Source of the DNA: Dictyostelium discoideum | Taxonomy: Eukaryota | Length of the DNA stretch: 64,000 bases | NCBI GenBank assembly: GCA_000004695.1 | Contig: CM000151.3 | Coordinates: 3,456,001 to 3,520,000, forward strand | Direction: 5' to 3' | Part shown: in pieces, positions 6,879-64,000 of the stretch | Position numbering within the stretch: position 1 is the first letter of the stretch | Layout: the number at the start of each line of letters is the position of its first letter | The notes under the pieces: generated by a model | The model's input: only the letters and a program-made list of their open reading frames with translations | What the model was told of the DNA's origin: nothing | The model's database searches: none | Translations under genes and position numbers: made by a program

Positions 6879-7610
6879 AAAAATAAAAAATAAAATTTAT
6901 TAATTTATTAATTATTTAAATAAGGTTCCCAATTCCCTTTTTTTTTTTTTTTTTTTTAATATTAAAAAAAATAGGAATTAATTAAACAATAACAAAAAAA
7001 AAAGATGTTTTTTTTTTTTTTTTTTTGATTAGGGAATGTTATTTTAAAAATATATTGTTGTATTTTTAATTATAAAAAAAATAAAAATTTTCAAAAAAAA
7101 TAAAAAATAAAAAATAAAAAAAAAAAAATTATAAAAAAAAAATAAAAAAAAATAAAAAAAATAAAATTCAAAAAAAAATATTTGAAAATAATTTTTTTAT
7201 TTTGAAGGCTGGTTGGTAATGTCAACGTTGTTCATTTATATTTGGTTATGTTGAGTATTTTAAATAATAAAAAAATAAAAATATTCCATTTTTATTTTTT
7301 TTAAAATCAAAATTTATTTTCATTTAAATGGAATATTAATTTTATTTATTTTATTATTTTTTTAAATATCTTGATTAAAAAAAAAAAAAAAAAAAAAATG
7401 AAGATATTTATTATTTTTTTTTTTTTTTTAATAATTTTTTTTTTTTGAGTGTTTTTAAAAATACTATTTTTTTTTTTTTTTTTTATAATTTTTTTCTTTT
7501 TTATTTCTTATTTATTTTTTATAATTGAAATTTTTATATAAAAATAAATAAAAAAACAAATAAATAAAGTTTTCCTAAACACTTTTTTTTTTTTTTAAAA
7601 TAAAAAAAAA

Positions 7611-9086
7611 ATGGTTGTACTTTCAAAATATAATGAATTTACAATTATTAATCAATTAAATGATGATAATTCAATATTATTTTTTAAAATTTGGAGAAAT
7701 ATTGTATTAAAAAAAAAGATATGGCAAGATGCAATTTTAATATCAAAATATGATATTCAAAATATTAAAGAAATAAAACAATTAAGAGAACATAAATATA
7801 GAGAATATATTAGAACAATTAAATTTGTTGATCATTTCAATGATTTATTAGAAGAAGGTGATATTCCAAACAATGTTTCAACAATTGATTTTGGTGTAGC
7901 ATTTGATACAAGAATTAGTGCTAGAGTTTTACCAAATTCGCTTACAACCCTTGACTTGGGCATACAATTTAATCAATCCATTGATTGTGGTGTTTTACCA
8001 AAAAATTTAAAAAATATTTATTTTAGTCATTTATTCAATAAACCAATACTAGTAAACTCAATTCCAAATAGTGTTAAATTAATTGATTTTAGAAATTCGC
8101 CATCGTTTAATACTGAAATTAAAATTGGATCATTGCCAAACTCATTAACCTCTTTAAATTTAGGGTATAAGTATAATATTAAATTTAAAGAAGGAGTTTT
8201 ACCAAACTCTTTAAAAAAATTAATAATTTCAGAAAATTACAATTTTCCAATTAAAAAAGGTGATTTACCAAATAGTATAACTAGTTTAACATTGGGAAAT
8301 TATGATCAAAATATTAAATCAGATGAGTTACCAGAAAGTTTAAAAGTTTTAATAATGGGCCCACTACAAACAAAACAAATTGAAATTTCAAATTTGAAAT
8401 ATATTGAAAAATTGACATTATCAGATTACTATGATGTTCAATATAAAGATTTTCCAAAATCTTTAAAAATTTTAAATTTAGCTTATAAATATAATAAACC
8501 AATTTTACCAAATTCTATTGACAATATTACTGAAATTACATTTGGTAGTGAATTTAATCAACCTATTGAATTGAGTACATTCAAGTCAATTAAGAAATTA
8601 GTATTTGGTGCTAGATTTAATCAGGAATTGAAGCCATATACTTTGAATGATGGTATTGAGAGTTTATCATTTGGTTATTTTTATAATAAAAAATTTCAAT
8701 CAAATAGTTTACCATCGACATTAACTTATTTAAAACTTGGTAGAGAATTTAATCAAATAGTTGAGCCTGGTATATTCCCAAACTCAATCAAACATTTAAT
8801 CTATAGTAATTTAAATAAATCACCATTGACCATTGGTATATTACCATCATCACTTGAAACTTTAGAATTTTTATTTTTCAATGCACCAATTGAGCCATTT
8901 TCAATTCCAAATGGTTGTAAAAAGATTATTTTAAGTTCACAATTTCAAAATCATTCAATTTCAAATAATGTTATACCAAATACTTGTACTGAATTAACAA
9001 TTTCTGAATTATATAAAAGAGAATTATTAGATTTAAATTCATTACCAAAAGGTTGTAAATTACTATATGCTTTATTAATTAATTAA
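7611..9086 (+). CDS. FNIP-repeat protein (Dictyostelium FNIP repeat family)
   Basis: Single 491-aa ORF with about 15 tandem ~22-aa repeats of the form LPNSLTxLxxGxxFNQPI, which is the FNIP repeat signature. The ATG sits directly after an A-run. Confidence 0.8.
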   Translation: MVVLSKYNEFTIINQLNDDNSILFFKIWRNIVLKKKIWQDAILISKYDIQNIKEIKQLREHKYREYIRTIKFVDHFNDLLEEGDIPNNVSTIDFGVAFDTRISARVLPNSLTTLDLGIQFNQSIDCGVLPKNLKNIYFSHLFNKPILVNSIPNSVKLIDFRNSPSFNTEIKIGSLPNSLTSLNLGYKYNIKFKEGVLPNSLKKLIISENYNFPIKKGDLPNSITSLTLGNYDQNIKSDELPESLKVLIMGPLQTKQIEISNLKYIEKLTLSDYYDVQYKDFPKSLKILNLAYKYNKPILPNSIDNITEITFGSEFNQPIELSTFKSIKKLVFGARFNQELKPYTLNDGIESLSFGYFYNKKFQSNSLPSTLTYLKLGREFNQIVEPGIFPNSIKHLIYSNLNKSPLTIGILPSSLETLEFLFFNAPIEPFSIPNGCKKIILSSQFQNHSISNNVIPNTCTELTISELYKRELLDLNSLPKGCKLLYALLIN

Positions 9087-53483: not shown

Positions 53484-54355
53484 TTTTTAAAATATGTATA
53501 AAAATAAAAATAATTAAAATTTGGGTGTGATTTAAATAGTTTTTTTTTTTTTTTTTTTTTTCAAAAAAAAAATTCTAAAATATCTAAAAATATCACAAAA
53601 TATCAAAAAAAAAAAAAAAAAAAAAAATATCTAGAGAAAATTTTAAAAAAAAAAAATTAATATATTAAAATTAAAATTTTAAAATATTATTATTTAAATT
53701 ATCCTAAATTTTTAATTATTTTAAAACAAGTCCCTGGTGACTTTACCAATATTAAAAATAAATTTTAATTAAAAAATAATATTTTTTTTTTAGTTTTAAA
53801 ATTTGATTTTCTTTTTTTTTTTTTTTTTTAATAAAAATCGATGGAAAATTATTTTTAATATAAACAAAACCAATTTTATTAAATTAAAAAAGTAAATTTT
53901 GTTAAATAGTTTGAAAAAAAGGTGGAACAATTGTAACATGTTCAAATGTTTCATTTATTATAATTTTTTTTTTTTTAATATTGATTAATCACTTTTTAAC
54001 TATTAAATCAAATATTCAGTAATTTATAGGATTATAATCCTACACATACCGAATTTCTCAAATTCTGTAGCTCTATTAGACATAGAATTCAAAGACCAAG
54101 AATCTAGGCAATCAATAAATCCAAAAGAAGAGAAGAGACAATAAGAGCTAAGGATACATCCCTCAAATTCATTTTGAAAAAAAGATACTATTATTTTTAT
54201 TGTTATTTTTTTTTTCAGTTTTAAAATTAAATCAATATTTTTTTTTTTTTTTTTTTACCTGTGATCAGACCTTCAAGGAATGTCCTTGTGTCTTTTCGGC
54301 GGTGTTTGTTAAACGGTTTTATTTTTATTATTCAATTGTATTAAATTTTTTAAAC

Positions 54356-54430
<75 letters not shown>

Positions 54431-54435
54431 ACTAC

Positions 54436-57400
54436 TTAAATTGGAAGAGGGTTCGGAGCTGCTGGGGTTTGCCAGGCTTTGTTGAATTTGTATTTGTGAA
54501 GATCTTGATTGGTGTTTTTTAGTATTGCTTCGTCGTGTTTGATTTTCTTTAGTGTGATGAATTTTTCAGTTTCGATGAGATTTAGTAATTCTGTTTCTAT
54601 GACCTTTTGCTCGAATTTTGGCTCTGGTTTGCTTTCATCAGTGTTGAACAATTTGTGACAGATTATCTTCCATAATTGGTGTGCTATTATTCCTATGAGA
54701 TTGGGGAAGATTCTCTCAGTTCTGTTGTATTTTGATATGTCTAAGGTATCCATTGACCATCTTTGGATTTTGATGAATGATAATTTGTTAACTGTTGATA
54801 TGATGGTTTTTTCAATATCTAGGATATCTTGGCATAGAGTGAAGAGGTGAGAATAAGGGTCTCTGAATAGGTGGCCACAGATCTTGCATCTGGTGTCTCT
54901 TTCGTGGTTGATACCTGGAAGTGATCTTGAGAAGAATCTGAAGAGGGTGTTTCTACCTTTTTGGTGAGAAATGCTGTTGATGTTTATGAATACTTTGGGT
55001 ATTGCTGTGTTGTATCTCACCGCCCATAACTTCTGCCATTCTGTTCTTCTTGGTGTTGGGTGTCTGTCTTTGATCATGAGTTCGTAAATTTCTTTCAGTT
55101 TTAGTGGTTCATCATTGTCGTTTCTTATACAGTCTGGAAGTTCATTTATCTTTGGATGGTTTTGGTAAAATTTGACTCTGAATACACCCCAGTGTCTGCA
55201 CATATCGTTGAGGGTTGAAGTGTGGGCTTTTTTCTACTTAATTGCTCCATGTACCATTCTTGTAAGGTATTGTTGTTGTTGTTGTAGTTGTTATGGAGTA
55301 GCCTGTTCATGTACCAGATTTTGAATGCTATATGTCTTAGTTCTATATCCCATAATTTTATGCCTCCTTCTTTCCAATCTGCATATGCTCTGTCTATTTT
55401 CATCATAGTTTTGTATTTTCTCTCTTCTGTATATGTATTCTTAACTGAGGAGAATAAGAACCATCTGGTCATGTTATTGATTTCCTCAATTTGTTCTTCA
55501 TTTAGATTATCCATGTATTGATGGTATGTTAATTTGGATAGAACGTATGTTTTGAGAATTGTCATCTTTGCCTTCATCGTTATTGCTTGTGATTTCCATT
55601 TGATTAGATTGTTTTTCATTTCTTGGATTAAAGTGTTGTATTTTGAATTTAAACCTGTTTTGGTGAAATTGAGGCCAAGATATCTTTCTGGGACTGTACT
55701 CTCTTGGAATGGTAGATCGTGTGGTTTATCTCCTATTGCTATCATTACTGTTTTCTCTTTGTTTAACGATGATGACGTTGCTGAGCAGTACTTTTGGATT
55801 TTAGTATTAATTTTCATTAGTTCTTCTGTGGAGTTTGTAAAGGTTGCTATGTCGTCAGCAAATGCAGTGAGTTTTAATGATTTGGAATTTGGTAGAGTGA
55901 AGCCTTTGATTGTATTATCATTGATGATATCTATTAGAAGTGGTTCTAAAACTAGAGCAAAGATTGTTGGTGATATTGGGTCTCCTTGTTTTGTTCCTGT
56001 TCTGATTGTTATTCCATTGACTAAAAAGTCGTTGATCTTTATTTTGTTTTTAGTATCTTTGAGTAGGTTTAGTAGGATCGCTGTGAATTTTGGGGGGATA
56101 CCAATATGCTCTAATGTTCTTGTGATACTCTTGTGGCTGATTGAATCGAATGCTTTGTTAAAATCGTAAAAGGTAATGAGTGTATTGTTCTTTCTTTTGT
56201 TACTTATTTCTATTACTTCCTTCATGATCTGAATATTGTCTTGGATGAACCTGTTTGGAACAAAGCCGTTTTGAAATTTGTTGATAATTTTACTGGTGAT
56301 ATCTAATAATCTACTGTTGAGAATTTTGCTTAAAATTTTGTAATCTGTATTGAGAAGGGTGATTGGTCTTCTATTTGAAATGTTTAGTTCATCTCCTTTT
56401 TTGAATATTGTTGTTATTACTCCTTCTTTGAATTTTGTGGGGATTTCTTTCTTATTTGTGAGGAGGTCGTTGAAAGCTATAGTCAATATTCTTGCTATTG
56501 AGTTGATGTGGTACTTGTAGAATAGTGCATTGATACCGTCTAAACCTGGAGATTTGTGGATACTTGAAGTTTTGATTGCTTTGGTCACTTCATGTATTCT
56601 TATCGGTCTGTCTATCTCGAGTTTCTTGATTAAATCAACGTCTACTTCCCATTTTTCTAATAACTTCTTGTGGGTTTCTTCGTTATCTTCTTTCTCTTCA
56701 TATTGATCTTGATAGAATTCAACAAATCTTTTTGCTATGTTCTCTTTATCTGATATGGTCTTATTATCTTTATCTTTTATTTGGAATATTGATTTATCTT
56801 TGGCTCTGGATTTAAGGATACTTGTGAGGTATTTGCTTGGTGTTTCTTGATGCAGGTGGAGTTTTAATTTTATATCCCATGCTTTTACCTTTCTTTCTTC
56901 TTCTAATATTCTACTTATTTCTTCATTGAGTTCTTTTCTCATCTTTGGAATGATATCACTATTTCCAAGTAATTTGTGGATTACGTATTTTCTTTTGTTC
57001 TTTTCTTTCTTTATTTTGTTTTGTTCTTTTTTTAAATAATCTCTGATGACATTATTTTTAAATTTCGTCCATTCCTCCACTGATTTGATCTTATCTTTGT
57101 TCTTACTGATTAATTCTGATAACCCATCATGTATATGTTTGTTGTTGAGAATTTCTTTACATAATGTCCAAGGGAGTCTTTCTAGTTTGGTTGTTGTTGT
57201 TGTTGTTGTTGTTTCTCTGTTGGTTTGTATTGTGATTGTGATGGGAAAGTGATCTGATTTGTTGAATACTGTGTTGTGGACTACCAGTTTTGAATTTTGG
57301 TTTAGTAGTGTTGGATGACAGTAGATTCTATCTAGTCTCTTCATTGATCTTGGAAATGTTGGAGTGTTTTCTTCAATACCAGTATCTAGTAGCATGTCTT

Positions 57401-57881
57401 GGTCTATTATTTTACGTAATTCAGTACCGAAGAAGCTGTTGCAATCGTGGTTGTTATTGAAGTCGCCTGCTATTATTTGATGGTTGATTGAATTATATTT
57501 TTTAAACAGTGATTTTGAGTTGATTATGAAGGTGTTTCTTTCAGATATAGTCGCTGGAGCATTGATCAATAATATGTTGATAGAATTAAAGGAATTGTAT
57601 TTAATTGATAGTATTCTACCATCATCGTCTTTGAAGTTTATTGATATGTGGCCTTTTCTTGTATCTCTATTTTCTATTGCTATGCCAGTTCCTTTACCTG
57701 AACCATGATCTATTCTTTCAAAGTTGAACATTGTTTTGTGGTGGTTGAATCCATTGAAATTAGTTTCAGTTAGGAGTGTTAATTGAGTGCCAATTCTTTT
57801 TATCGTTTCTTCTGTTTTATTCTTAGCGTTGGTTGATTGATTACCTCTGCAGTTCCATAGTAATAATTTTAATTGTTCCAT
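54436..57881 (-). CDS. Retrotransposon ORF2 (AP endonuclease plus reverse transcriptase plus Cys-rich C-terminus), interrupted by a frame change at 55146-55203
   Basis: Track ORFs 55146-57881 (911 aa) and 54436-55203 (255 aa) overlap in different frames. Together they form a typical LINE ORF2. Confidence 0.6.
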
Positions 57882-57950
57882 TATTTTCTAATACTACTGG
57901 CAATTGGAAACTTGGTACCATTGCTTGTAGTAATTTTATTGATAGGTTTT

Positions 57951-57985
<35 letters not shown>

Positions 57986-58762
57986 TTTGTTTAGGTTGTT
58001 GATTGTTGTATTGCTTGTTGGTAATTGATGTGTGATTGTTGTTGGTGTGGTTGTTGTTTGTGTGGTTGTTATTGGTGTGGTTGTTATTGGTGTGGTTGTT
58101 GATGCATTAGTTGTTGGTGGAGTTGATGGTATTGGTTTAGTTGTATTTGTAGTTGTTGGTTGTTGATTTTTATTACTTGTGTTTTTTTTTTTTCTAACAT
58201 CTCTTATTTCTTTATTGTTATATTCAGAGATGAAGGCTCTTATTGGATGCTTACTACCTTTTATAGCATCAATGTTTGTTTTAATGATTGAGATATCATC
58301 TTCTTTGTTAAATAATAGAATGCATGAATATCTAATCACATCTGGTAGCATTACTATGTTGCATTCATCTATTAGTAATGGCTCCAATCCCCAGTTTTCT
58401 TTTACCATTTGATTGTTTATTTTTTTTATTATGTTTTTTGTAAATGTGTAAAAGTGGACATAGTGATATCCTGGGGTGTAAAGTATGAATTTTTGCAGTG
58501 GGAAATCTTCATACTTGAAAGTGCTGTAACACTCGTGTAATAATGTGAATTTTTCTTTTAGTATTCTACCAAATACTGTTATACCTTTTTGTCTTCTGAC
58601 AATGTTAAGAGTACCATTAACTATGAAATTATCTATTAATTTTGTTGAATTACTATTTAATTCCAAGGTATGTGGGTAGAATAACCTTATTTGAATAGTT
58701 TTTTTATTTAACTCTTCTTCGCCTAAGTTGAGTTCACCTTTAAGTTTATCGAAAAAATTCAT
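57881..58762 (-). CDS. Retrotransposon ORF1 (Thr-rich C-terminus)
   Basis: 293-aa ORF immediately 5' of the AP-endonuclease/RT ORF, overlapping it by 1 nt. Confidence 0.6.
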
Positions 58763-59054
58763 TTTTTTTTTTTTTTTTTTTTTTTTAGATTATTTTTATT
58801 ATTTTTTTTTTTTAATTATGTGTTTATATAAAAATATTTTTGATTTTTATTTTTATTTTTTTTTTTCTTTATCGTTTATTCAGATCTATTCTTATTCCCA
58901 ATCCAAGGATTGAAGGAATTAGTGTGTAGAGTAGATAGATTGAATGTAGTTGATGTTAGATTGATGGATATGTTTTTCTGTATCTAGTATCCGTTTGATC
59001 AACTGTAGGCTTTTAATTTTTTTAAAATTAAATCAATATGGAATTTAATTCTTT

Positions 59055-59468
59055 AAAATAGGAATCGAACTAGCGACATATTCTGTATAATTTTAAAATT
59101 TAGCTTCTCTAGGTTTCGATCCTAGGACCTCGAGGTTATGGGCCTCGCACTCTACCCCTGAGTTAAGAAGCTGTCGATTCAAGCTAACGAATCTTATGAT
59201 TTTTCTGTAATAAAGTTACTCTATAAAATTAATAGATATTAAATATGCATATTACATTACTAATTATAGTTGACACACATTTAAATAATATAATAATAAT
59301 AATAATAATACTGTCAACTCATTATAAATAATATAAATACTAAAGAATAATTTTATAAACAATATTGAATATTATAAATATAAACTAATATTAAATAAAG
59401 ATAACAAAGTATTATTCAATTATATAATTATTAATTATATATTTATAAAGCTAACAAGCTTTATTACA
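59055..59468. repeat. Inverted-duplication arm A (tRNAi-Met plus ~300 bp 5' flank plus ~45 bp 3' flank)
   Basis: Reverse complement matches 62201-62625 with few mismatches. Confidence 0.75.
59101..59172 (-). tRNA. Initiator tRNA-Met (anticodon CAT), copy A
   Basis: Minus strand AGCTTCT-TA-ACTC-AGGGGTA-GAGT-G-CGAGG-CCCATAA-CCTCG-AGGTC-CTAGG-ATCGAAA-CCTAG-AGAAGCT-A. All four stems pair perfectly. A1:T72, A54 and A60 (ATCGAAA in place of TTCGA) are eukaryotic initiator hallmarks. The anticodon stem is GC-rich and the loop carries CAT. Confidence 0.8.
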
Positions 59469-59616
59469 TTTCATATCAAATAACTAAATGTTGTCTGAAG
59501 TGTTCTAAAAAAAAAAAAAGGTAAACCAACCCCTCTTTTAGGGACCCTGTAAAAAAAAAATAAAATAAAATGAGATCTAGCATCTCAAGGAGAAGCAAAT
59601 AATTGCGTTATCCAAT

Positions 59617-59931
59617 TCAAAAAAAAAAAAAAAGTCTGAAGTGTTCCGGGATGTTTATGGTCATGAGTTTCGATTTCCAGTTGTGACTGAATTTTTCGAG
59701 TCTTCTTTTTATTGATGCGGTCCTATTGATTGACTCTCGGTTATCAGTGCATCTTAGTTCTTGACGTAGTTGCTTTTCTACTATCTTTCTTGTTCTATCC
59801 CATTCGGCATCTCTCGCTTTTTTGATTTTATGAATTATTTGGTTCTCTGTTATTATTGTAGTGTTATCGTTGAATTTTATTTGGTTTCTTCTGTACCATA
59901 TCGATTCCATAATGGCTGTCTTTTTTTCCAA
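59617..59931 (-). pseudogene. Retroelement-like ORF fragment A, a diverged direct repeat of 61877-62200
   Basis: The peptides LEKFSHNWKSKLMTINIPEHF (A) and LERFSKHWNSPLHTVALPSNL (B) and their DNA align on the same strand. Fragment A ends in an oligo-T/A run and lies next to the tRNA 5' flank. Confidence 0.4.
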
Positions 59932-60291
59932 GATATTCTAATTTGGAGAAAAAAATTTGATAAATCCTGAACATTCACTGAATGAATAGTGCATTTTTGT
60001 TGTTACAGATCCTTTCTCAAACAGGGATGAAAACTATATATGTTAATATATGTCGCTTATTCATTGGCGATTATTACATTTTCATCATTTGGATATACAA
60101 TCTTAAGAGAGATATACAAAAACAACCAACAAAAACAACTTCTTTTTGATTATTTCATTTTTCATATAAAAAGACTTAAAAACAAATAAATAAAGTCACT
60201 TATTTAAAAAAGCCATCTTTTTATTTTATTTTAATTTATTTTTTTTTTTTTGAAAATTTTGATTGGTGTAAACTTCTATTGGGGTTGGCGC

Positions 60292-60330
<39 letters not shown>

Positions 60331-60403
60331 TTTTTTTTTGCTCAAACTATTATATTTTGTTCCCTTTAAAAATGAAATAAAAAAGAAATATTGAAAAAAC
60401 GAA

Positions 60404-60404
<1 letters not shown>

Positions 60405-60502
<98 letters not shown>
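60405..60502. repeat. (AAT)n intergenic microsatellite
   Basis: Seen directly. Confidence 0.9.
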
Positions 60503-60599
60503 TAATTATAGCATCAGCATCAGTTAAAGGTATTGAATGGGATGAAATTCTATACAATTGAAGCATTGGATACTTGTTTTGTCATCAGTATTACCAAAA

Positions 60600-60878
60600 T
60601 TATAATGACTTGAACCATAACTTAAATGGAATATTCAATTGATCTCCATTTTTTTTTGATTTTTTACCTCTAAATGATTCTCTGGGATAACGTTTACAGT
60701 GATCCATTATAACTTTATTAACATTAACTTGTTGATGAATACTACTACAATGTCTGGAGTAGTGTGTTTTAAATTGCCCACAATCCAAACAATAACTATC
60801 TTCATCATAAAGATCATCTTCAATTGAAATAGATTTAACTTCTTTTTTAATTAATTGTTCATCTTCTTCCTTTATCAT
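60600..60878 (-). CDS. Hypothetical small acidic protein with a CxxC...HC zinc-ribbon-like motif (92 aa)
   Basis: ATG ORF; CLDCGQFKTHYSRHC. I recognised no family, and the surrounding context is repeat-rich. Confidence 0.3.
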   Translation of the reverse strand: MIKEEDEQLIKKEVKSISIEDDLYDEDSYCLDCGQFKTHYSRHCSSIHQQVNVNKVIMDHCKRYPRESFRGKKSKKNGDQLNIPFKLWFKSL

Positions 60879-61236
60879 TACTTTAATACAAAAAATACAA
60901 ACTCCAAGATCTCAATTATAAAATATTGATTGTGAACACATTATAGTACATACTTTACATTTAATTAAATCTTTAAAACTTCTAAAAATAAAAAAAAAAA
61001 ATAAAAAAAAAAAAAATTAATATGTGTAAATATTTAATAAAATATATTATATTTATATTAAAATAATATTTAAAATTTATATTATATTTATTTTTAAATA
61101 ATAATTAATAAAAAAAAAAAATTTTGAAAATATATAAAAAAAAAAAAAAGAGTTATTGCAATAGAAAATTATGATTTTTTTTAAAAAAAAAAAAAAAAGG
61201 TATTTTGGTGATCTAAATTTAAAAAATTCGTTTCTT

Positions 61237-61766
61237 TATAAAATTAATTTTAGTATAAATAGTTTAAATAAAATAAAGATAAACATTATTTTTAGTAGTA
61301 AAAGAGATAAATATATTATATATATAAATTATTATTATTATTATTTCTGTGTGTTCACGTATATTATGTATTTTATACAAGTTTCAAAATGTTTTTTACT
61401 TTTATTAATTTTTTTCTTTTTTTGTGAATCTTGAATAATGGAAATTATTATATATTCAAATGATGAAAAATGTAATAATCGCGAATAATTAAGCGACATA
61501 AATTTATATTTAAGTTTTTATCCCTGGTAAAATACAAATATAGAAATAGATCTGTAGCTGAAAAGACGTTAACAAATACAAGATTCTTACTTTATTCTCA
61601 GAAATTTTAGTAAAATTTATTTTAGTATAAATAGTAAATAAAATAAAAATTCATTGTTGTTTTATTCCAAATTGTGCACAAACTAAACTTATAATTTTTA
61701 TATAAGAGATATAATATTATTTTTTTTTTATTATTTATTATTAATTATTTCTGTGTGTTCAAGGGT
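61237..61766. repeat. Two diverged direct copies (61237-61358 and 61607-61766) of a ~130-160 bp element
   Basis: Shared motifs ttttagtataaatagt(t)taaataaaataaa and ttatttctgtgtgttca in the same order. Possible LTR/transposon relic. Confidence 0.4.
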
Positions 61767-61876
61767 CAAATTATTAAAAGTATTTAATAGGAATTTTTTT
61801 TTTTGAATGGAATAACGCAATTTTTAGTTGCTTCTTCTTGAGATATAACTCATTTTATTAATTTTATTATTAGATA

Positions 61877-61901
61877 TTACAGGTGCCTTTTAAGGTTGTA
61901 T

Positions 61902-61954
<53 letters not shown>

Positions 61955-62200
61955 TTGGGGGGTGTAGAGTGTGTTTAGTGACGTAATATATTTGTTGAGG
62001 TTTGATGGTAGTGCTACTGTGTGTAGTGGTGAGTTCCAGTGTTTGCTAAATCTTTCGAGTTGTAGGGAGATGATGTTTTTGAATTTTTTTGTTTGTTCGT
62101 TGTTGGTTGCTTTTTTTTCTTGTCTGATTAGTTTGTATATGTTGTTTTTTGTTTTTCCCAGGCTGCTGTTATTTAATAGAAATTGGAATACGACGTTCAT
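61877..62200 (-). pseudogene. Retroelement-like ORF fragment B, truncated exactly at the inverted-duplication junction (62200/62201)
   Basis: See fragment A. The A30 run at 61905-61950 lies inside it. Confidence 0.4.
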
Positions 62201-62625
62201 TACACAAATGTAATAAAGCTTGTTAGCTTTATAAATATATATAATTAATAATTATATAATTGAATAATACTTTGTTATCTTTATTTAATATTAGTTTATA
62301 TTTAATATTCAATATTGTTTATAAAATTATTCTTTAGTATTTATATTATTTATAATGAGTTGACAGTATTATTATTATTATTATTATTATATTATTTAAA
62401 TGTGTGTCAACTAAAATTAGTAATGTAATATGCATATTTAATATGTATTAATTTTATAGAGTAACTTTATTACAACAAAATCATAAGATTCGTTAGCTTG
62501 AATCGACAGCTTCTTAACTCAGGGGTAGAGTGCGAGGCCCATAACCTCGAGGTCCTAGGATCGAAACCTAGAGAAGCTAAATTTTAAAATTATATAGAAT
62601 ATGTCGCTAGTTCGATTCCTATTTC
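62201..62625. repeat. Inverted-duplication arm B
   Basis: Matches the reverse complement of 59055-59468. It ends in a 15-bp perfect hairpin (62604-62618 / 62635-62649). Confidence 0.75.
62508..62579 (+). tRNA. Initiator tRNA-Met (anticodon CAT), copy B, identical sequence in inverted orientation
   Basis: Exact reverse complement of copy A, sitting inside an inverted duplicated block. Confidence 0.8.
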
Positions 62626-62889
62626 ATTTATTCAGAATCGAACTAGCGAGAACTTATAATTATCCAAACGGTTTTAAGAATTTATTGAAATTAATTTTTA
62701 TTATTCATGAACATGGTTTAATAACATTGATCAAAAAAAAAAAAAAAAAAAACCAATAATATTAATACAATATTTTACAATTAAAATTTTTAATTTGATT
62801 ATTTAAATTGAAAAAAGAATAATAAATTTAAATTTTAAAATTCAAAAATATTAAAAAAAAATTGATATTTTAGATAAACTAATTAATCA

Positions 62890-62928
<39 letters not shown>

Positions 62929-63163
62929 ATTTTAATCAACTGTATTAAAATATTTTTAATTTTTTAATATAAAATTAAAAAAATATAATTTTCTTTAGTT
63001 AGATTCCTCAATAATAATTATAGCTTTTAAAAAGATAAATAAAAAAAGAAATATATAAATTAAAAGACTAAACATAAAAATTAAATTATAAAAAAGAAAA
63101 TATTTTATTAAATAATTATTAAATTATAAAAATAAAATCCAAACAAAAAAAAAAAAATTGATT

Positions 63164-63326: not shown

Positions 63327-63559
63327 TTAGTTTTTAAAAAATCAAATCTTTGCAAAAATAAATTTAAACAATGATTACTTTTTTGTCAATTTACAAAAAA
63401 AATTAAAAATAATTAAATTTAAAAAATAAAAAAAAAAAAAAAAAAAACCAATTAAAAAAAGAAAAAGTATAAAAAGAAAAAAAATTTTTAATTAAAATCA
63501 TTAAATTGAAAAATTAAAATTTCATACAAATTATCTTTTTAAATAATAAAATTTATAAA

Positions 63560-64000
63560 ATGTCTACCCAAGGTTTAGTTCAACTTATCTCAAATGCTCA
63601 ATGTCATTTAAGAACCTCAACCAATTACAATGATGTCCACACTCAATTTAATGCTGTTTTAAACTATAAAAACAAAGGTACCAATACTATTGATGGTTCA
63701 GAAGCTTGGTGTTCATCAATCGTAGATACCAACCAATACATTGTTGCTGGTTGTGAAGTTCCACGTACTTTTATGTGTGTTGCTCTCCAAGGTCGTGGTG
63801 ATCATGATCAATGGGTTACATCATACAAAATCCGTTATTCATTAGATAATGTTACCTGGTCTGAATATCGTAATGGTGCTGCTATTACTGGTGTAACTGA
63901 TCGTAACACTGTTGTTAATCATTTCTTTGATACTCCAATTAGAGCTCGTTCAATTGCTATCCACCCATTAACCTGGAATAACCACATTTCATTAAGATGT
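63560..64000 (+). CDS. dsc: Discoidin I (discoidin-domain lectin), 5' part; the CDS runs off the window end
   Basis: [147 protein letters not shown] is recognisably discoidin I. GC-richer codons are typical of a highly expressed gene. It is absent from the ORF track because there is no stop before the window edge. Confidence 0.8.

Follow-up and report, generated by a model that had tools for sequence, protein, structure and literature searches.

The window, a 64-kb stretch of Dictyostelium discoideum chromosome 2 with a GC content of ~22%, lies just upstream of the discoidin I C gene dscC. The translation of its final 441 bases is an exact match to residues 1-147 of the discoidin I C/B chain (P0042, identical in all 147 amino acids). 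Since the start of discoidin I C/B is at the right end of the window, the locus described here, two initiator tRNA-Met genes and the repeats around them, can be placed ~1 kb upstream of dscC on chromosome 2. The window has exactly two tRNA genes, both tRNA-Met(CAT) of 72 nt according to ARAGORN and Rfam. The two genes are identical, with facing 5' ends and a distance of 3.3 kb. A sequence-only reading of the window had reported two identical initiator tRNA-Met genes in opposite orientation ~3.3 kb apart; ARAGORN and Rfam bear this out, and A1:T72 and A54/A60 can be read from the sequence. The locus is likely an old head-to-head tRNA-Met pair upstream of dscC which undergoes gene conversion and has repeatedly served as a landing pad for the retroelements DGLT-A, TRE5 and TRE3. 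The features at and within the two inverted arms are as follows (LTR, long terminal repeat; L005 to L009, orthologous loci in other assemblies).

59056-59471: left arm; old core at 59056-59203, then target-site duplication and solo LTR
59062-59076, minus strand: left external B box, 25-39 nt downstream of the tRNA gene, with GTTCGATTC at 59062-59070
59101-59172, minus strand: left initiator tRNA-Met(CAT) (ARAGORN; Rfam RF00005, 57.7 bits), with orthologues in L005, L006, L008 and L009
59206-59468: 263-bp solo LTR of the left arm, 33 bp upstream of its tRNA, flanked by TTTC at 59202-59205 and 59469-59472
62206-62624: right arm; solo LTR, then target-site duplication, then old core at 62477-62624
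62209-62474: 266-bp solo LTR of the right arm, 33 bp upstream of its tRNA, flanked by a perfect 5-bp ACAAA duplication at 62204-62208 and 62475-62479
62508-62579, plus strand: right initiator tRNA-Met(CAT) (ARAGORN, Rfam), ~1 kb upstream of dscC; found in L005-L008 but not in L009
62604-62618, plus strand: external B box of the right tRNA, also the first hairpin arm, with GTTCGATTC at 62610-62618
62635-62649, minus strand: extra inverted 15-mer, the second hairpin arm, in the AX4-type lineage only, where ~50 nt of ancestral flank are gone
63560-64000, plus strand: start of dscC (discoidin I C/B chain; P0042 identical over 147 amino acids), which anchors the locus on chromosome 2

The tRNA genes and their inverted arms

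Both genes have a tRNA fold with a CAT anticodon, and the Rfam RF00005 score of 57.7 bits compares with a cutoff of 29. The eukaryotic initiator marks A1:U72 (A1:T72 in the DNA), A54 and A60 are present, as read from AGCTTCT...GGATCGAAACC...AGAAGCTA. The stretch carrying A54 and A60 is GATCGAAAC in both genes. The initiator bases A54/A60 result in a mismatch of the internal B box, so that GATCGAAAC, with A54, fails the consensus GTTCRANNC in both genes. D. discoideum has eight initiator tRNA genes, and the pair in the window accounts for two of them (PMC13063481).

Downstream of each tRNA, GTTCGATTC matches the B-box consensus GTTCRANNC and is kept in all orthologous copies. The element is a normal promoter-like external B box common to both copies, and it is predicted to bind TFIIIC. 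External B boxes have been reported for ~80% of Dictyostelium tRNA genes (PMC5911963). The boxes in the window resemble these in their consensus (GTTCGATTC), their downstream position and their conservation in every orthologue. They differ in being ~50 nt from the internal B box, compared with ~100 nt in that review, and the right copy of the AX4-type lineage also bears an extra inverted B-box 15-mer which makes a hairpin. The internal box being off-consensus, the external B box may count more than usual for TFIIIC binding at these genes.

The sequence-only reading also described inverted blocks of ~415 bp around the two genes. Explicit alignment confirms that the blocks are reverse complements, at slightly shifted coordinates: 59056-59471 and 62624-62206 are 97.15% identical over 421 columns (BLAST E = 3e-161), and the spacing between the two arms is 2.7 kb. 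Apart from the LTR, each arm consists of the tRNA with flanks of 31-33 bp upstream and 45 bp downstream, the latter ending right after GTCGCTAGTTCGATTCCTATTT. The old core is ~150 bp per arm, from 31 bp upstream of the tRNA through 45 bp downstream. When the TRE3 element beyond the left arm was removed, no arm homology was found past 45 bp downstream, the alignment being no better than shuffles. The TRE3 insertion site was considered as the outer boundary of the left arm and rejected, since the TRE3 target-site duplication begins 16 nt further out.

The rest of each arm is a unit with the termini TGTAATAAAG...CTTTATTACA (TG...CA) and a 10-bp terminal inverted repeat. Short target-site duplications are on both sides of each unit (ACAAA/ACAAA on the right, TTTC/TTTC on the left), with an ambiguous length of 4 or 5 bp. 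The apparent 415-bp inverted duplication can, with good confidence, be decomposed into the old core plus one solo LTR per arm. The junction 59468/62201, which had been equated with the truncated 5' end of the retroelement fragment B, is actually an LTR end; fragment B ends at ~62169, ~36 bp away, and the ATG at 62200 is a fortuitous part of a mechanical open reading frame (ORF).

The 263-266-bp unit is most likely a solo LTR of DGLT-A. In D. discoideum this element has an LTR of 265 bp and integrates 13-33 bp upstream of tRNA genes (PMC5006619), and eleven DGLT-A solo LTRs, under the earlier name H3R, have been described (Spaller et al. 2016, PMC5006619). The assignment suggested here follows from the agreement of length, position in the 13-33 bp range and solo state with published DGLT-A. 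The two units in the window are 263 and 266 bp long with TG...CA termini, and both are 33 bp upstream of their tRNA. Another copy, which shows that the unit is dispersed, occurs at tRNA-Ile in L002; it is 96-97% identical, ~15 bp upstream of the gene, and its orientation relative to the tRNA is unchanged. The DGLT-A primer-binding site TGGCGACATCGTCTTTC is absent from the window and 8 loci, as expected for solo LTRs. The units thus resemble known DGLT-A solo LTRs in length (263-266 vs 265 bp), position, termini, short duplication and the copy at tRNA-Ile. The difference is that here both members of an inverted tRNA pair bear one at the identical nucleotide. It weighs against the assignment that the names DGLT-A, TRE5 and TRE3 are based on length, position, termini, target-site duplications and protein names rather than on consensus alignment.

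The pair in other genomes and concerted evolution

The orthologous loci in other assemblies were reached via the discoidin proteins. The loci compared were L005, L006, L007, L008 and L009; L002 is a different locus (tRNA-Ile). Unfiltered low-complexity BLAST runs gave mostly AT-rich noise, and their top hits alone were used.

L005, D. discoideum GCA_054883475.1: 99.77% identity over 9.6 kb; both tRNAs, both arms, LTR and second hairpin arm present
L006, D. discoideum GCA_054859355.1: flanks ~89% identical; head-to-head pair 1.56 kb apart, no LTR, no second hairpin arm
L007, D. discoideum GCA_054859385.1: both copies, in direct orientation via an inversion; no LTR seen near the right copy, no second hairpin arm
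L008, D. cf. discoideum: head-to-head pair; neither tRNA has an LTR next to it; no second hairpin arm
L009, D. citrinum syntenic slot: left copy only

The inverted arrangement could in principle be an assembly artefact, in which a collapsed or mis-joined repeat was built into two facing arms. AT-rich, repeat-rich regions are generally prone to misassembly, and no specific support for an artefact was found. The independent assembly GCA_054883475.1 reproduces 9.6 kb of the locus (L005) at 99.77% identity. The L006 and L008 assemblies also show the head-to-head pair, and L007 has both copies, in direct orientation through an inversion. The reproduction in L005 rules out an artefact for practical purposes.

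The pair is older than the repeats within its arms. L006 matches the window arms over 59051-59205 and 62477-62629 only, which gives arms of ~150-180 bp in that genome. Since the pairs in L006 and L008 have neither the LTRs beside the tRNAs nor the second hairpin arm, the pair predates both. For the same reason ~265 bp of each arm are a later retroelement insertion. In the L008 spacer, a degraded LTR-like remnant was recognized by eye. L008 also has partial tRNA-Met copies (5' thirds plus upstream flank) at 7336-7400, 7510-7570, 7590-7640 and 7960-7990, stacked between the two intact genes.

The flanks of the tRNA genes (31 bp upstream and ~45 bp downstream) evolve in concert. Copies within a genome differ at 1 position in the window, 2 in L006 and 2 in L008, as against 9-22 positions between the copies of different genomes. 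Both tRNA copies of L008 share the compensatory changes T49C/A63G. The outer flanks past CCTATTT group by side, left with left and right with right, and are thus positionally orthologous. Paralogous flanks are therefore closer to each other than to their orthologues, and the outer flanks remain orthologous. One old duplication with ongoing gene conversion between the arms would be the simplest account of this pattern. Gene conversion between inverted repeats is known from palindrome arms and ribosomal DNA palindromes, where the arms in one genome are likewise far closer than orthologous arms. The converting core at this locus differs in being very short, at ~150 bp, and in being centred on a tRNA gene.

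The D. citrinum locus L009 has the same three genes on the left, discoidin on the right and a TRE5 upstream of its lone tRNA. No right-hand tRNA-Met was found before the discoidin gene at this syntenic locus. The left gene is therefore probably the ancestral copy and the right one derived, because the sole copy in D. citrinum is the left. The polarity depends on this one D. citrinum locus, which weighs against it, and a loss of the right copy in that species is possible. The sole tRNA-Met of L009 (8304-8377, minus strand) has a compensatory acceptor-stem variant and an external B box, with a TRE5 and a C-module upstream. The proposal that the locus is an inverted duplication is thus retained in part: the tRNA was once duplicated in inverted orientation, as suggested by the left copy alone in D. 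citrinum, but the duplicated unit was not 415 bp and the event was not recent.

Origin of the hairpin and of the solo LTRs

The 15-mer TCGCTAGTTCGATTC occurs exactly three times, at 59062-59076 (minus strand), 62604-62618 (plus strand) and 62635-62649 (minus strand), where 0.02 occurrences are expected from shuffles. The perfect hairpin with a third copy of its arm, as previously noted, is therefore real: the 62604/62649 pair folds into a 15-bp stem with a 16-nt loop at -15.4 kcal/mol (z = -7). The sequence-only reading took this hairpin as the footprint of a recent fold-back or template-switch event which duplicated the 415-bp block. Such an event would agree with the 97% identity of the arms, with the perfect 15-bp inverted repeat found at the right arm's outer end, and with an arm homology that ends within the hairpin loop. 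A fold-back is expected to leave its short inverted repeat at the palindrome centre, however, and here the arms are 2.7 kb apart with the hairpin (62604-62649) outside them, at the outer edge of the right arm and not at the centre of symmetry. No inverted tRNA copy continues past 62649, where the alignment score is 32 vs 30 for the 15-mer alone and does not exceed the best of 200 shuffles. The timing also disagrees. The pairs in L006 and L008 and the two copies in L007 all lack the second 15-mer, the L006 pair has no LTR, and L008 has none beside its tRNAs. Furthermore, 265 bp of each arm are a dispersed repeat with its own target-site duplication. A recent fold-back is thus very improbable. 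The first hairpin arm is the external B box, and the second is later than the tRNA pair and specific to the AX4-type lineage.

The second arm may have a local origin. In a side-by-side reading with L006, ~50 nt between CCTATTT...ATTTA and CACTTAAAATTAAAT appear to be replaced by GAATCGAACTAGCGA in the AX4-type right flank. GAATCGAACTAGCGA is an inverted copy of the external B box situated 17-31 nt upstream. The extra 15-mer probably arose together with the ~50-nt deletion, as a templated insertion during break repair. No priming microhomology was found at the extra 15-mer.

The solo LTRs have most likely resulted from two separate DGLT-A insertions, one per arm. Both L006 copies have GAAAA at the ancestral site, 29-33 bp upstream of the tRNA (tRNA sense strand). 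The left LTR of the window has GAAA on each side (tRNA sense), and its distal flank is old upstream sequence (TAGTTATTTGATAT vs TAGTTATTGTATAT in L006). The right LTR has ACAAA on each side, and its distal flank GTTCATTACAC resembles, by eye, the flank of the right copy in L008. The distal flanks of the two LTRs have only AAA in common. Two independent integrations are favoured because the duplications are arm-specific and the distal flanks offer no homology in which a conversion tract could end. An integrase placed by the RNA polymerase III transcription complex would, with identical flanks, be expected to integrate the element at the same nucleotide in both arms.

Several points weigh against two insertions, and most of them would fit a single DGLT-A insertion which spread to the other arm by gene conversion or because the LTR and core were duplicated in inverted orientation a second time. 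The arms are demonstrably subject to gene conversion, and the nucleotide hit, 33 bp upstream, is the same for both LTRs. A distance of 33 bp is the extreme of the published 13-33 bp range, and two integrations there are a coincidence unless the flanks position the integrase precisely. The LTRs of the two arms are 2 substitutions and 3 small indels apart, and the L002 copy is more distant from both, as would fit a single insertion that was later copied. The duplications are also unequal, with 4 bp on the left (GAAA) vs 5 bp on the right (ACAAA), so that an A must have been gained or lost, and AAA is common to both arms just past the distal LTR end. Spread of a single insertion is nevertheless unlikely. 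Each LTR has its own duplication on both sides (ACAAA/ACAAA vs GAAA/GAAA). The distal flanks have no homology past AAA, and a conversion tract cannot resolve there. The proximal duplication, which lies mid-way in the 415-bp homology, still differs at two adjacent positions. Two insertions remain the most likely reading.

Neighbouring retroelements and the history of the locus

The sequence between and beside the arms contains further elements.

~54239-59019, minus strand: full-length TRE3-type non-LTR retrotransposon, oriented like the left tRNA, with its 5' end (~59019-59023) 78 bp past the 3' end of that gene, on its downstream side
59506-59633, plus strand: severely 5'-truncated TRE5-type remnant, 128 bp (T, A13, C-module-like tail of ~100 nt, A15), 5' end toward the left tRNA
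59634-59927, minus strand: fragment A, a C-terminal fragment of TRE ORF2 truncated at both ends (homologues P0001-P0004; tblastn)
60022-61526: unclassified unit of ~1.5 kb with 80-bp inverted repeats at its ends (85% identity, first letters CAGGGATRAAAAC) and, inside, a (TAA)n tract
61794-62169, minus strand: element B (fragment B), 5'-truncated, TRE5-type (ORF2 end, A49, C-module-like tail, A-tail), 5' end toward the right tRNA

TRE5 elements integrate 34-95 bp upstream of tRNA genes with the 5' end toward the tRNA (PMC5391098; PMC5006619). The elements at 59506-59633 and 61794-62169 are probably TRE5-type, as suggested by their geometry and their homologous copies. The left remnant has a perfect 13-bp target-site duplication, GTCTGAAGTGTTC, at 59493-59505 and 59634-59646. 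That of element B is TATTTAATAG(G/A)AA at 61781-61793 and 62170-62182. The tails end in A15 and A13, and the duplications match at 13/13 and 12/13 positions, 12-16 bp being the length taken for TRE5. With the LTRs removed, the duplications are 54-66 bp (left) and 55-67 bp (right) upstream of the tRNA, and both elements are in the canonical orientation. The left remnant is 74% similar to the tail of fragment B and 92.6% to a copy upstream of tRNA-Leu in L005. Homologous TRE5-type copies occur upstream of tRNA-Ile (L002), tRNA-Leu (L005) and tRNA-Met (L006, L009).

A protein search with fragment A returned D. discoideum proteins (homologues P0001-P0004), including the AX4 gene model DDB_G0273271, and the truncated source name of P0004 starts 'Reverse transcriptase z'. 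At the DNA level, homology to L001 and L002 is confined to 59637-59917. The orientation of fragment A would fit an older element that had inserted upstream of the right tRNA, with a later deletion reaching into the upstream flank of the left tRNA. In L002 (7722-9032), a TRE of the fragment A family interrupts the LTR at tRNA-Ile(AAT), ~45 bp upstream of the gene. An older C-module remnant comes next, and the layering of insertions is as in the window.

The unit at 60022-61526 contains a Cys/His-rich ORF of 92 amino acids (60600-60878, minus strand) and may be the remnant of a DNA transposon. The AX4 gene model DDB_G0273271 splices this ORF to fragment A, and is a predicted model built on transposon debris. 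A direct repeat, ATTTTAGTATAAATAGT...TTATTTCTGTGTGTTCA, is present at 61245-61347 inside the unit and at 61616-61763 outside it. Pfam gave no match for fragments A and B, the 92-amino-acid ORF or TRE3 ORF1. An exact-protein look-up gave no record for the neighbouring ORFs of the window or for the AX4 gene model P0003.

TRE3 elements integrate 40-150 bp downstream of tRNA genes and share their orientation (PMC5911963), and the element in the window is at 78 bp with both tRNA and element on the minus strand. It has two ORFs, a tail of A70, a module and A19, and a 20-bp target-site duplication, TTTTAAAATTAAATCAATAT, at 54219-54238 and 59020-59039. ORF1 (57881-58762) clusters with 'gag' AAD43058, and ORF2 (55146-57881) matches the Exo_endo_phos (APE) and RVT_1 (RT) domains. 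The 3' end at 54239-54440 (ORF2, A70, a module of ~110 nt, A19) parallels the ORF2, A49, C-module and A13 of fragment B. Downstream of the right tRNA, A-runs at 62733-62757, 62896-62931 and 63427-63452 are each followed by CCA(A/T)T; these may be stacked truncated tails of TRE3 type with overlapping target sites. The segment 62650-62752 was considered as a truncated TRE3 tail and dropped, since it resembles the TRE3 3' module weakly and has its A-run on the wrong side.

The TRE elements of the locus conform to known TRE5 and TRE3 elements, with TRE5 5' ends pointing to the tRNA 54-67 bp upstream (LTR removed), TRE3 78 bp downstream, A-tails and 13-20-bp duplications. Fragment A is different in being truncated at both ends and in abutting the flank of the left tRNA through a deletion. 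The earlier statement that the locus records successive retroelement events is correct in that it is a landing pad for tRNA-targeted elements, but these have accumulated around two tRNA genes and not one.

The favoured history would begin with a single inverted duplication of the left gene, reaching from at least ~60 bp upstream to 45 bp downstream and ending just past the external B box. This would have occurred before the split of D. discoideum and D. cf. discoideum and probably after the split from D. citrinum, the latter timing being suggested by one locus. Gene conversion between the arms would then have kept the ~150-bp core near-identical within each genome, and both genes would have acted as RNA polymerase III landing pads for tRNA-targeted retroelements. 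TRE5-type elements would have integrated before DGLT-A, upstream of both genes at 54-67 bp and with the 5' end toward the tRNA. In the AX4-type lineage, DGLT-A would have integrated 33 bp upstream of each copy, most likely in two events, and each insertion would have collapsed to a solo LTR. A full-length TRE3 would have integrated 78 bp downstream of the left gene. The 15-bp hairpin would consist of the external B box and a short inverted copy added later, together with the ~50-nt deletion and probably by templated insertion in break repair.

The spacer, right tRNA-Met, dscC and dscD are inverted over ~10 kb in L007 (GCA_054859385.1), so that this arrangement is strain-polymorphic. The inversion was recognized from L007 17637-20762 and 1406-4341 compared with L006 7477-4414 and L005 19319-16463. 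One breakpoint is ~51 bp upstream of the left tRNA-Met, at the TRE5 landing site, and the other is near tRNA-Leu(TAG). Oppositely oriented TRE5 copies are likely the substrates of the inversion. A broader reading joins these observations: the pair and its stacked retroelements would form an active recombination module, in which gene conversion keeps homogenising the ~150-bp arms, an inversion of ~10 kb mediated by oppositely oriented TRE5 copies at the adjacent tRNA-Met and tRNA-Leu landing pads flips the discoidin I C/D genes, and the hairpin could act as an extra TFIIIC site or a fragile site. This combined reading is tentative, and the odds are slightly against it.

Pairs of tRNA genes and tRNA-targeted retroelements are established in this genome (PMC8163159; PMC5006619; PMC5911963). 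The present pair is like the known D. discoideum tRNA gene pairs in that its tRNA genes are identical, have duplicated flanks and are separated by a few kb. It differs in that the cross-strain data add old age and concerted evolution, and in that most of the flank is a later LTR. The structure is real and its explanation is ordinary, known biology. An apparent structural rearrangement decomposes into known parts, and the current understanding of TRE, DGLT-A and tRNA biology is unchanged. The additions are modest and consist of the evidence for concerted evolution, a double LTR insertion at the same nucleotide and the strain-polymorphic dscC/dscD inversion. The locus offers a small, clean case of concerted evolution in a tRNA gene pair. 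It also indicates that near-identical inverted blocks can arise when one type of tRNA-targeted retroelement hits the same position beside two old gene copies, and that tRNA/retroelement stacks near the discoidin genes are prone to rearrangement, as in the strain-polymorphic inversion.

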